Below are positions 8,784-30,519 of a stretch of 64,000 bases of DNA, one piece after another. Under the pieces are notes generated by a model. That model made no database searches and had not been told where the DNA came from. It was given only the letters and a program-made list of their open reading frames with translations. Source of the stretch: a virus (taxonomy: Duplodnaviria; Caudoviricetes); the IMG/VR virus record IMGVR_UViG_3300021399_000143, positions 1 through 64,000 of that record; one strand, written 5' to 3'. How positions within the stretch are numbered: position 1 is the stretch's first letter; each line of letters opens with the position of its first letter. A program made the translations under genes and the position numbers.

Positions 8784-8791
8784 TATTTACC
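8784..8791 (-). promoter_or_regulatory. Late promoter motif GGTAAATA
   Basis: 35 nt upstream of the 8749 start; variant of T4 TATAAATA. Confidence 0.7.
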
Positions 8792-8866
8792 ATTTTTCAA
8801 CACCAAAAGAAAAGGTCCGAACCGAAGTCCGAACCAAGTCTTTATAACATCTACTATTTGGAATCG

Positions 8867-9142
8867 TCAAACCATCTTCGACTCGTTGATGATGTACTGA
8901 ACGCCCTCTGGATCCTCCCAATACAACTGTTCGGATAGTTCAATTTCAACCCCCATTTCCTCTATGTCCTCTGGGGAATAGCCCTGCTCAGGAAGTTCCT
9001 CGTTGATGACATAATCAATCAAGGAATCGACATTGGTTGAAACTACAGTGGAAATGTCCTCAGCATCCCCGGATTGATTGGCGTTTATCACCAGAACATA
9101 TACATTCCTCATCGGTCTTTTCTTCTGAATAATTCTTTTCAT
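8867..9142 (-). CDS. Hypothetical protein
   Basis: ORF (start may be 9112); TGTAAATA motif at 9180-9187. Confidence 0.6.
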   Translation of the reverse strand: MKRIIQKKRPMRNVYVLVINANQSGDAEDISTVVSTNVDSLIDYVINEELPEQGYSPEDIEEMGVEIELSEQLYWEDPEGVQYIINESKMV

Positions 9143-10263: not shown

Positions 10264-10626
10264 TCAGATTGATTTGAGGATATCCTGAATCTTCTCCCTC
10301 AATTCTCCGTCTTGAATCTCTTGGCACAACCTTGACACCTCAGCCAACTTCTTGAGGGTATCTGTCCTTCTCTCATACTCGTTCTTGAGGGATTTTCGCA
10401 TATTCTCATCAACCACACTTTGCTCTGTTGAGAGCTTGATTGAAGGATGCAACACGATTTGATTTTGCGTCCAATCGAACCCAATCTCAACTCTGTCAAT
10501 TGGAACTGTCGTATAGCACGTCAGTTGATTCTTGTCGTGCTTCCTCACGGTCAATTCAAGCGCATCTTCCCTCCCCTTTATTTGGGGATGAAGTTCGCAA
10601 AAGTTGAGAAAATCATTCAATGTCAT
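10264..10626 (-). CDS. Hypothetical protein
   Basis: 120 aa ORF with AAGGA RBS right after the tmRNA. Confidence 0.7.
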   Translation of the reverse strand: MTLNDFLNFCELHPQIKGREDALELTVRKHDKNQLTCYTTVPIDRVEIGFDWTQNQIVLHPSIKLSTEQSVVDENMRKSLKNEYERRTDTLKKLAEVSRLCQEIQDGELREKIQDILKSI

Positions 10627-10644
10627 TGTGTGTTATCCTTAAAA

Positions 10645-11015
10645 TGGTGGAGGTGCGGAGCTGCTGCCGCTCCGGTCTTGCTCAGGCTTGAACATTGCTT
10701 GGTCATGTGCTTATGCCCATCTTGGTTTCATCTGGTGCAGATAGGGCAATAACTCCCAGATGATTTTATGGAAATGGCTGCGAATGGACGTTCCCATGCT
10801 CCATTGCAGTTGCGTTGGTGGATTAAGCCAGACAAGGTACTCTCGCACAACCTCCCTTGCCCAACTGCTGTCTTACAGATTGATGTTTCTCAATCAAGCA
10901 GCGATGGCATAGTCAGCCTCAGTTTGCTTTGGTCGGATTTTAAGGAAGCCATCTGACCAACTTCCGCACACATAACAATATCCTTGCATCTGCCAATCGA
11001 TACTATTTCACCCCC
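10645..11015 (-). ncRNA. ssrA: tmRNA (one-piece, 371 nt)
   Basis: 5' GGGGGTGAAATAGTATCGAT; 3' GCACCTCCACCA; G3:U70 pair; PK1 GGAAG/CTTCC plus TTGGTC/GACCAA; tag frame ...EADYAIAA-TGA. Confidence 0.9.
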
Positions 11016-11025
11016 AGTTTGTAAA

Positions 11026-11367
11026 TCAACCTTTGTCATTGCAGCAGTCTTCCATAGCGTCAGTTCCAGGACAAACTCCTGTACCGTCGCAATAGGATAT
11101 GAACTCAATCTTTCCCAAAGACTGCCTTGAATCTTGCATCAACTTCTTCACGAAATCAACACTGTCGAGAGCTTCGCCCAAGAGAATGTCTTTGGATGTC
11201 CTTGACAATCCAATTGAACATCTGATGTCCCGAAGCATATCCCTCAACTTTATGATAATGTTCTCTACGTGATCGTATGTATATGGAGCATAACTTCTCG
11301 CTCCAATTGGCAAACTGCCCTGCGTTTCCTTGTCGTCCATGTTGTATGGTTCTCCTTTGGTTTCCAT
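11026..11367 (-). CDS. Hypothetical protein
   Basis: ORF ending 11 nt before the tmRNA; start METKGEP inferred. Confidence 0.5.
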   Translation of the reverse strand: METKGEPYNMDDKETQGSLPIGARSYAPYTYDHVENIIIKLRDMLRDIRCSIGLSRTSKDILLGEALDSVDFVKKLMQDSRQSLGKIEFISYCDGTGVCPGTDAMEDCCNDKG

Positions 11368-11384
11368 ACAACAATTATACATAA

Positions 11385-11585
11385 TCACGTAAGAAGAATG
11401 GCGTTTGTCTCTGGCGTAACGGATGAAACCTGCGTGACGATATTTCCACAAATCCCATGACCAAACTCGCAAAGTGTGGCGTCACTGACTTCAGAATACT
11501 CCTCATAGTCTCTGGAGGTGTCAAGAACAACCTTCCAATCGTCAGGAAATCGTGAAAGCAATCTCTTAAGCTCGGCTACTGTCAT
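11385..11585 (-). CDS. Hypothetical protein
   Basis: MTVAELKRLLSRFPDD phage-type N-terminus; ATGA overlap. Confidence 0.65.
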   Translation of the reverse strand: MTVAELKRLLSRFPDDWKVVLDTSRDYEEYSEVSDATLCEFGHGICGNIVTQVSSVTPETNAILLT

Positions 11586-15111: not shown

Positions 15112-15166
15112 GTCTATACACCTATATTGAAATTGTTGTCGTACAAGTGTATTTACAATTAAGGCA

Positions 15167-21247: not shown

Positions 21248-21487
21248 ATGAACACGCTTACAATCTACAGTAGAAGATATGACTTGAACGAAAATGTAAC
21301 AAACGGTGGAATGTCGGGAAAGGCGTTCTTGGACATAGACAACAAACTTGGAACGCCATTCATCAACATGGACAGTGCGTTAGATTATTTGATGGAGAAC
21401 AACATACCCATTCACAGAATAGAGTTCAACTACATGGATAAATATGGTATCCAGATGTTCAAGAGATTTGATGTTGTCATAAAATAA
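21248..21487 (+). CDS. Hypothetical protein
   Basis: 79 aa ORF after TATAAT at 21202-21207. Confidence 0.6.
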   Translation: MNTLTIYSRRYDLNENVTNGGMSGKAFLDIDNKLGTPFINMDSALDYLMENNIPIHRIEFNYMDKYGIQMFKRFDVVIK

Positions 21488-21488
21488 T

Positions 21489-21496
21489 GGTAAATA
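21489..21496 (+). promoter_or_regulatory. Late promoter motif GGTAAATA
   Basis: 10 nt upstream of the 21506 start. Confidence 0.7.
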
Positions 21497-30502: not shown

Positions 30503-30510
30503 TATTTACC
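30503..30510 (-). promoter_or_regulatory. Late promoter motif GGTAAATA
   Basis: 10 nt upstream of the 30493 start; heads the baseplate operon. Confidence 0.75.
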
Positions 30511-30519
30511 ATTTATCGG

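Follow-up and report, generated by a model that had tools for sequence, protein, structure and literature searches.

A one-piece tmRNA with an alternative T-loop in a TAG-recoded phage of the ruminant gut

Two described groups of transfer-messenger RNA (tmRNA) come closest to the gene reported here, which lies on the minus strand at positions 10645-11015 of a 64,000-nucleotide (nt) stretch of phage DNA (Caudoviricetes; IMG/VR record IMGVR_UViG_3300021399_000143, positions 1 to 64,000), below called the window. The first is the one-piece bacterial tmRNA (Rfam family RF00023; E. coli SsrA). The window gene shares with it the order of elements, the length of 371 nt, the acceptor with G3:U70, A73 and CCA, helix P2, pseudoknot 1 (PK1), some 11 nt of spacer ahead of the resume codon, a tag with Ala-Ala at its end, a stop codon in helix 5 (H5) and putative further pseudoknots. 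It differs in the D-loop (UAG instead of UGG), in the T-loop (GGCAGCA in a 9-nt loop instead of UUCGANN) and in its subthreshold score. The second group is the alphaproteobacterial two-piece tmRNA (RF01849 and RF04321; Caulobacter, SAR11). Here the T-loop consensus GGCgGUA, a similar acceptor and the 5' motif GGGGGUGNAAUAGNNUCGA are shared, and the halves of the window gene match RF01849 and RF04321 best. In contrast to these families, the window gene is unpermuted: the 5' strand of the acceptor comes first (11015) and the T arm and CCA come last (10674-10645), hence the RNA is in one piece. The permuted order of RF01849 and RF04321 is thus absent, and a GGCRGUA-type T-loop with a matching D-loop is present.

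Phage-borne tmRNAs are documented in huge phages (PMC7162821) and occur in about 2.3% of isolate phage genomes, including that of the T4-like phage Melnitz (PMC9004378). Melnitz and the pelagimyophages carry two-piece tmRNAs (PMC9004378). Like other phage tmRNAs, several of which belong to T4-like or jumbo phages, the window copy is complete and has its own tag. In contrast, no sequence similarity exists beyond the tRNA-like ends, and the tag stop is UGA in the window copy and UAA in seven of the nine other phage tags that were read. The window tmRNA is also set apart by its ruminant-gut origin, its TAG-recoded genome and a near-invariant body with a variable T arm.

The locus holds a genuine, selected and apparently expressed one-piece tmRNA, which standard tools overlook because of an alternative tRNA corner of a known type. 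We give a probability of roughly 0.78 to the reading that it is the functional one-piece tmRNA (ssrA) of a T4-like ruminant-gut phage of about 420 kb that reads TAG as an amino acid.

Anatomy of the gene and its alternative tRNA corner

Every feature listed for the tmRNA by the original prediction, which was made from the DNA letters, was found at its coordinates on the minus strand. The elements are all present in the right order and spacing (RNA position n equals 11016 minus the window coordinate):

10645..11015, minus strand: whole tmRNA gene, 371 nt, one-piece
11009..11015, minus strand: 5' strand of the acceptor stem, GGGGGUG (RNA 1-7), including G3; pairs with RNA 361-367
10996..11008, minus strand: D-loop analogue AAAUAGUAUCGAU (RNA 8-20), with UAG replacing the UGG of ordinary tmRNA
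10966..10992, minus strand: 5' strand of helix P2 (RNA 24-50); 21 pairs with RNA 306-333
10929..10965, minus strand: PK1; stem 1 RNA 51-55/68-72, stem 2 RNA 56-64/79-87
10894..10920, minus strand: tag frame GAG-GCU-GAC-UAU-GCC-AUC-GCU-GCU-UGA (RNA 96-122)
10878..10895, minus strand: hairpin H5 holding the UGA stop (RNA 121-138), GAUUGA/UCAAUC
10711..10875, minus strand: body with the PK2-PK4 region (RNA 141-305), placed by the Rfam alignment of sister allele L263
10683..10710, minus strand: 3' strand of helix P2 (RNA 306-333), from the covariation test
10656..10674, minus strand: T arm CGGAG-C-GGCAGCA-G-CUCCG (RNA 342-360), with the T-loop GGCAGCA at 10662-10668
10645..10655, minus strand: 3' strand of the acceptor stem, CACCUCC (with U70), discriminator A73 and encoded CCA, from sequence and covariation

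The acceptor is a 7-bp stem with G3:U70 followed by A73 and CCA. This tRNA-Ala-like domain had been predicted, and its parts are invariant or compensated in the seven alleles described below. Helix P2 is 99-100% paired, and two of its pairs vary one-sidedly from G-U to G-C or A-U. PK1 is an H-type pseudoknot, separated from the tag frame by a spacer of 8 to 11 nt; it is upheld by a compensatory change at pair 64:79 and by the Rfam alignment of L263, which puts PK1 at the same site. The PK2-PK4 region, which varies little among alleles, was aligned by Rfam in L263 with low posterior probability. Two other candidates were set aside. Hand-drawn versions of PK2 and PK3 were dropped, since an incomplete list of substitutions from diverged RNA contigs gave mixed support. 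A chance open reading frame (ORF) of 72 amino acids (aa) over the 5' half (10890-11108) was rejected, as the conservation pattern there is that of an RNA.

The internal frame ends in a hydrophobic residue and Ala-Ala, and its UGA lies inside H5. The resume codon is either GAG (RNA 96-98) or GCU (RNA 99-101), both in one frame. E. coli-like spacing from the hand-placed PK1 favours GCU99, and the Rfam alignment of L263 favours GAG96, at low posterior probability. Therefore, the tag is (A)EADYAIAA or (A)ADYAIAA. The predicted tag frame, EADYAIAA-TGA, is present from ADYAIAA to UGA, while its initial E depends on the resume codon.

The T-loop GGCAGCA, predicted to replace TTCRANY, sits either in a 9-nt loop or in a 7-nt loop on top of a 6-bp stem. 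A survey with the D-loop motif collected 63 distinct 3' halves, 52 of them with a recognisable T-loop. G55 and C56 were found in 52 of 52, and positions 54:58 were G:G (34) or U:A (18). Ordinary tmRNA combines a UGG D-loop with a UUC T-loop (Rfam consensus ..uGGaUUCGAC). In the window tmRNA, UAG with G55-C56 replaces the canonical GG/UUC, and 54:58 is G:G or U:A among its alleles. As far as a fold can be read from the sequence, GGCAGCA is no isolated oddity but belongs to an alternative corner whose parts match (A18 with G55, G54 with G58).

The 5' motif GGGGGUGNAAUAGNNUCGA belongs mostly to permuted genes, with 98 of 119 IMG/VR matches and 76 of 120 species-genome matches being permuted, the latter mostly in Alphaproteobacteria such as Pelagibacter. 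It also occurs in at least 12 other distinct one-piece tmRNAs of phage contigs (L003, L008, L009, L019, L053, L063, L076, L082, L104, L107, L121, L129). The alternative corner is shared by L003, L008, L019, L053, L063, L076 and L082, and a 9-nt loop is common to the window tmRNA, L003, L008, L082 and L104. Nine of the twelve, with near-identical copies left out, were tested on the Rfam tmRNA model. Six scored 54-130 bits, and L104, L107 and L121 stayed below its threshold. Cellular one-piece carriers exist as well. Three tmRNAs from Chloroflexi/Anaerolineae metagenome-assembled genomes (MAGs; L165, L200, L211) have the same one-piece order, the D-loop AAUAG and 8-nt GGCAG T-loops (G-GGCAGAC, G-GGCAGAA, U-GGCAGAG), and reach 109-149 bits on Rfam tmRNA. 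They differ from the phage RNA in being cellular and in their unrelated bodies and tags (e.g. ..PAYALAA), and are not its close relatives. In the one-piece tmRNAs of Chloroflexi and phages, a GGCRG-type T-loop was always accompanied by the D-loop motif AAUAG. The original prediction had described GGCRGUA as the T-loop of alphaproteobacterial two-piece tmRNA and the window copy as one-piece. Both statements stand, but the type is not confined to two-piece RNAs, and the combination of one piece with GGCRG is not peculiar to this phage.

Further cellular one-piece carriers of GGGGGUGNAAUAGNNUCGA were found in gut Elusimicrobia (T-loop UGCGAAU) and in Gemmatimonadota. The one-piece tmRNAs of gut and rumen Elusimicrobia MAGs (L142, L150, L158, L163, L174 and others) are about 345 nt long and have an AAUAG D-loop, no encoded CCA and tags ending in ..VAWANA. 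Among the phage contigs, two alternative-corner one-piece tmRNAs lie inside large tRNA arrays (L008:3074-10297, with 19 tRNAs called by ARAGORN; L082:1066-7660, with 11 Rfam tRNA matches). IMG/VR contigs also hold tag-less mini genes of 63-80 nt (L067:6866-6928 and L095:5656-5735, both minus strand; L101; L116). These consist only of a tmRNA-like acceptor, an AAUAG D-loop and a UGCAAUU T arm, and are reminiscent of the tag-less RNA of phage DS6A.

The prediction of a complete phage tmRNA with a non-canonical T-loop was confirmed, as was its absence from standard gene tracks. The window copy does not reach the RF00023 gathering threshold (47 bits), and no RF00023 match was obtained at the locus. 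A separate Rfam search was given only the 381 nt around it. In this search, RF04321 positions 82-213 matched the 5' part up to and including the tag (20.1 bits, E 0.033), and RF01849 (alpha_tmRNA) matched T arm and acceptor (13.8 bits, E 0.027). The two halves of the permuted models occur at the locus in standard order. Of the proposed check with ARAGORN and Rfam, it can be said that neither program calls the window copy, while the sister allele L263 aligns with RF00023 end to end and above threshold (58.7 bits, E 4e-21). The body of L263 (RNA 8-341) is 99.1% identical to that of the window, and its T arm, CCGGG-UGCGAUU-CCCGG, is more ordinary. Thus the shortfall of the window copy is due to its T arm and acceptor. 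Gene finders miss it because of the alternative corner contacts and the 9-nt T-loop.

Two further matches were not used. The sole RF00023 match of the whole-record search, a local one of 8.7 bits at 9046-9070 on the minus strand, is a terminator-like hairpin and was rejected as a second tmRNA. An nhmmer profile of 13 related phage tmRNAs matched the locus at E 6e-9. This was not counted as evidence because the signal came from the 5' 19 nt by which those sequences had been chosen; profiles of related phage tmRNAs without the ends gave no match.

A frozen body with a variable tRNA-like end

Alleles were collected in two ways. A scan of metagenome contigs with the 5' 23-mer returned L131 and the truncated L128. 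Homologues of the 120-aa protein encoded downstream led to contigs L255, L256, L262, L263 and L259, and the RNA was found at the same place in all of them. The resulting alignment (A2) has eight rows. Covariation was evaluated on seven alleles (window, L131, L255, L256, L259, L262 and L263), all from ruminant-gut assemblies.

With the canonical structure, 97.9% of the cells in A2 pair, compared with 33-42% when partners are slid by 1-3 columns. The covariation score was reached by none of 500 shuffles. Changes on both sides were observed in seven pairs: two in the acceptor, four of the five in the T stem and one in PK1. Acceptor pairs 4:69 and 5:68 switch from G-C to C-G or U-A in L255, L256 and L263, and G3:U70 and A73 are invariant across alleles. 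In PK1, stem 1 is invariant, and pair 64:79 of stem 2 changes from A-U to G-C in L255 and L256. Every cell with letters pairs in H5, and in L255 and L256 deletions in the loop shorten the stem. The CCA is not encoded in L256. An RNAalifold fold of the seven alleles was set aside: with so little variation in the body, this part was folded non-canonically.

The tag frame is the most conserved segment of the tmRNA. Only 1 of 35 columns of the tag region varies among the six full-length alleles, with an Ile to Met change in L263 that is also present in the partial L259. Mean pairwise identity is 99% in the tag region, 97-98% in P2, 95.6% in PK2-PK4, 81% in the acceptor stem and 62% in the T arm. 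Compared with L131, the tmRNA is 98.1% identical, the adjoining spacers about 60% and the flanking genes 71-90%, and conservation begins and stops at the predicted mature ends. Among alleles, the tmRNA body is 92-99% identical and the downstream gene 64-91% (nucleotide).

The T arm behaves differently from the body. Of its 19 columns, 15 vary among alleles, the loop is 7, 8 or 9 nt long, and the T-loops read GGCAGCA, GGCAGAA, GGCAGUA, UGCAAAU, UGCAACU or UGCGAUU. Between window and L263, only 3 of 334 body positions differ, as against 15 of 33 in T arm and acceptor; the downstream genes are 84% identical (nucleotide). Several of the changes at the ends are swaps from G-C to C-G without a wobble intermediate, and 10674, at the border of the T arm, is a point where assemblies break. 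This lineage inverts what is usual in tmRNA evolution: its body is near-frozen, and variation, always compensated, is found in the T arm and in acceptor pairs 4:69 and 5:68.

Several causes of this pattern are possible. The end may vary in escape from a nuclease that reads T-loops or acceptors, or from a Seg-like homing endonuclease. The body may have been swept by recombination, with both ends forced to stay matched. The end may also have drifted with compensation near the neutral rate; the spacers too are about 40% diverged. Seven alleles are too few for choosing among these causes. We tentatively consider, as a minority view, that diversifying selection acts on the tRNA-like end (T arm, T-loop length, pairs 4:69 and 5:68) of an otherwise frozen RNA. 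The tmRNA would then be contested in phage-host or phage-phage conflict, maybe alongside an extra need for rescue under amber suppression. On such a reading, what it escapes may be a defence nuclease recognising T-loops or acceptor ends, or else the Seg-like homing endonuclease whose gene takes up its slot in related phages (see below).

Locus, genome and RNA libraries

The tmRNA occupies a 399-nt gap between two minus-strand ORFs:

11026..11472, minus strand: upstream ORF; its end lies 10 nt from the 5' end of the tmRNA
10264..10626, minus strand: downstream 120-aa gene, function unassigned, starting 18 nt after CCA; it served as anchor for fetching relatives

The upstream flank is not conserved among relatives. 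No promoter-like site was seen directly upstream of the tmRNA in the window. In L255, L256 and L263 a candidate late motif, AATTGTAAATA, stands 19 nt before the RNA, and it is absent there in the window. The motif AATKGTAAATA, with one mismatch allowed, has 17 matches in the window (2.2 expected), e.g. at 8784-8794, 15150-15160, 21486-21496 and 30503-30513, which fits a candidate late promoter.

In the sister phages L260 (1681-2490) and L261, the slot directly upstream of the 120-aa gene is taken by a Seg-like homing-endonuclease gene of the GIY-YIG type, which encodes 269 aa and contains TAG in frame three times. Neither this gene nor a tmRNA was found in the slot of L257 and L258. The full record of 75.7 kb is 18% complete by CheckV, giving a genome of about 422 kb. 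A 422,011-bp contig, L264 (ENA ERZ12302813 NODE_3), encodes an identical 120-aa protein and is probably the near-complete genome of this phage.

Several searches were negative. BLASTN of this RNA and of the L008 tmRNA against GenBank phages gave no match, and the exact 3' end and the 120-aa protein were not found in IMG/VR. The tag/H5 pattern had no match in 185,579 species genomes, so that no host or cellular donor was identified.

The tmRNA stretch was found in gut metagenomes, mostly labelled bovine or sheep. Four runs were compared over 10264-11472, as contigs and not as reads. Three metatranscriptome studies, two bovine and one of sheep, yielded RNA contigs that fall entirely inside the gene, at 10646-11001, 10674-10983 and 10687-10967. 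No RNA contig covers the flanking genes, across which a DNA run continues. In run X15, the RNA contig stops a single base before the CCA end, at 10646, and its GGCAGCA T arm is unchanged. Together, these contigs lend moderate support, and not proof, to a discrete and abundant RNA from the locus. Deeper RNA contigs from sheep and bovine rumen, reaching a word depth of about 41, have no match beyond the tag end and H5 (10881-10921). Their loose ends encode ..GNDYAIAA and ..DADYAIAA, so diverged relatives keep ..DYAIAA, which points to a wider, abundant family of related tmRNAs in the rumen.

Function, alternative explanations and meaning

The structure of the gene, the selection on its RNA and its presence in RNA libraries carry the reading as a functional tmRNA, from which we infer charging, tagging, partner proteins and a benefit to the phage. 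RNase P would free the 5' end of the RNA from a longer precursor, and the 3' end would be trimmed back as far as the encoded CCA. Host alanyl-tRNA synthetase would charge it with alanine via G3:U70 and A73. With EF-Tu and, most likely, host SmpB, it would then enter ribosomes stalled on broken or stop-less mRNAs, its tRNA-like corner using A18-G55 and G54-G58 contacts instead of GG/T-psi-C. The tag (A)[E]ADYAIAA would be added and translation would end at UGA, so that the ribosome is recycled and the peptide marked for host proteases. By analogy, the role is most likely the general one proposed for phage tmRNAs, in which rescue capacity is kept high during host mRNA destruction and translation takeover. 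We consider this general role more likely than a coupling to recoding (PMC7162821, PMC9004378).

Several observations weigh against a functional tmRNA. ARAGORN, run over the whole 75.7-kb record and also with relaxed settings, returned a tRNA-Arg only, and Rfam at curated thresholds gave no match at the locus. The non-canonical, variable T-loop could mean a weakened or altered function. Relatives without a tmRNA in the slot make it dispensable at this locus. An SmpB gene, which the original prediction had proposed to look for, was not found in the 75.7-kb record, covering about 18% of the genome. Finally, the RNA evidence consists of contigs, for which ends, strand and transcription are unproven and DNA carry-over is not excluded.

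One alternative regards the RNA as a nuclease-proof spare. With no U54-U55 site in its T-loop, and with a T arm and acceptor that change continually, it would keep rescue going under host defences that cut tRNA-like RNAs; in another form, it is the DNA at the gene ends that would evade a homing endonuclease. T-loops are cut at UUC (U54-U55) by Cash, a type III CRISPR-associated nuclease, and changing either U54 or U55 alone abolishes this (PMC13462974). G55 is present in the T-loops of all alleles of the window tmRNA, and position 54 is G or U. The contrast between 15 of 19 variable T-arm columns, with pairs 4:69 and 5:68, and a 92-99% identical body would fit such an escape, as would the Seg-like GIY-YIG gene in the same slot of sister phages and the break of assemblies at 10674. 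However, the corner is native to alphaproteobacterial and Chloroflexi tmRNAs and need not be directed against a defence. Only seven alleles are at hand, no nuclease is known for the host of this phage, and the divergence of the ends is close to that of neighbouring spacers (about 40%), which compensated neutral drift or recombination could explain. We regard this explanation as improbable.

The original prediction had tentatively tied the tmRNA to the TAG code transition. In a sharper form of this idea, the gene would be retained because amber suppression by the phage adds to the load of stalled ribosomes, which the phage tmRNA would clear. Such ribosomes could arise when TAG-ending host or early genes are read to the mRNA end, or by pausing at TAG if release factor 1 (RF1) is disabled. 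That TAG is sense in this genome is clear: 95 in-frame TAG codons occur in 26 of its 54 long genes, and read-through joins fragments into ORFs of 753-1569 aa. Suppressor-tRNA readthrough to the mRNA end is reported to create trans-translation substrates (Ueda 2002, as cited in PMC3985003), and tmRNA acts at UAG in RF1-less E. coli (PMC6207430).

Other observations speak against the link. Where RF1 terminates at TAG, the peptide is freed normally, and therefore no tmRNA substrate arises. Alternative T-loop tmRNAs with the same 5' motif occur in aquatic phages with standard-code-looking contigs. This was judged from ORF cover with each stop removed, a crude test that discriminates poorly and was used only to note that several relatives' contigs are already well covered by ORFs under code 11. 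The tags of L008 and L107 end with UAG. The recoded sister L260, like L261, has the Seg-like gene and no tmRNA in the slot, and the slot is empty in L257 and L258. No gene for a suppressor tRNA, a release factor or SmpB was found in the 75.7 kb, and the term 'tmRNA' does not occur in the papers on recoded or jumbo phages that were examined for it. The further suggestion that the UGA stop of the tag is immune to recoding gives the link no support, as UAA would escape equally and TGA is in any case the stop used most often in the genome (in 33 of 54 long genes). Coupling of tmRNA and recoding is thus possible but unsupported, and we hold it to be unlikely.

A decoy that blocks host trans-translation without tagging, or a decaying relic of a captured gene or attachment-site fragment, is very unlikely. 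In favour of it, the T-loop is non-canonical and varies over 7-9 nt, the gene is optional at the locus, tag-less mini forms occur in other phage contigs (L067, L095) and a tag-less tmRNA-like RNA of mycobacteriophage DS6A is reported to block host trans-translation (as cited in PMC11915505). Against it, the gene is full length with both ends, no other part is as well conserved as its tag frame (a conservative Ile to Met change in 1 of 35 columns), and G3:U70, A73, PK1, P2 and H5 are all retained by compensation.

Phage tmRNAs and this odd type of T-loop are both already known. The counts of phage tmRNAs rest on ARAGORN or Rfam (PMC7162821, PMC9004378), and ARAGORN missed every one-piece relative on which it was run here. 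Since real phage tmRNAs escape both tools via the alternative corner, these counts are underestimates. The carriers of tmRNA now include a TAG-recoded, T4-like jumbo phage of the ruminant gut. As far as can be told, no new mechanism of genetic-code switching is revealed. The alleles form a natural series in which one body is combined with various T arms and acceptor pairs, and thereby offer a probe for what the tRNA-like domain needs if it is to be alanylated, bind SmpB and withstand tRNA-directed nucleases. What deserves further attention is the variable tRNA-like end on a frozen body.

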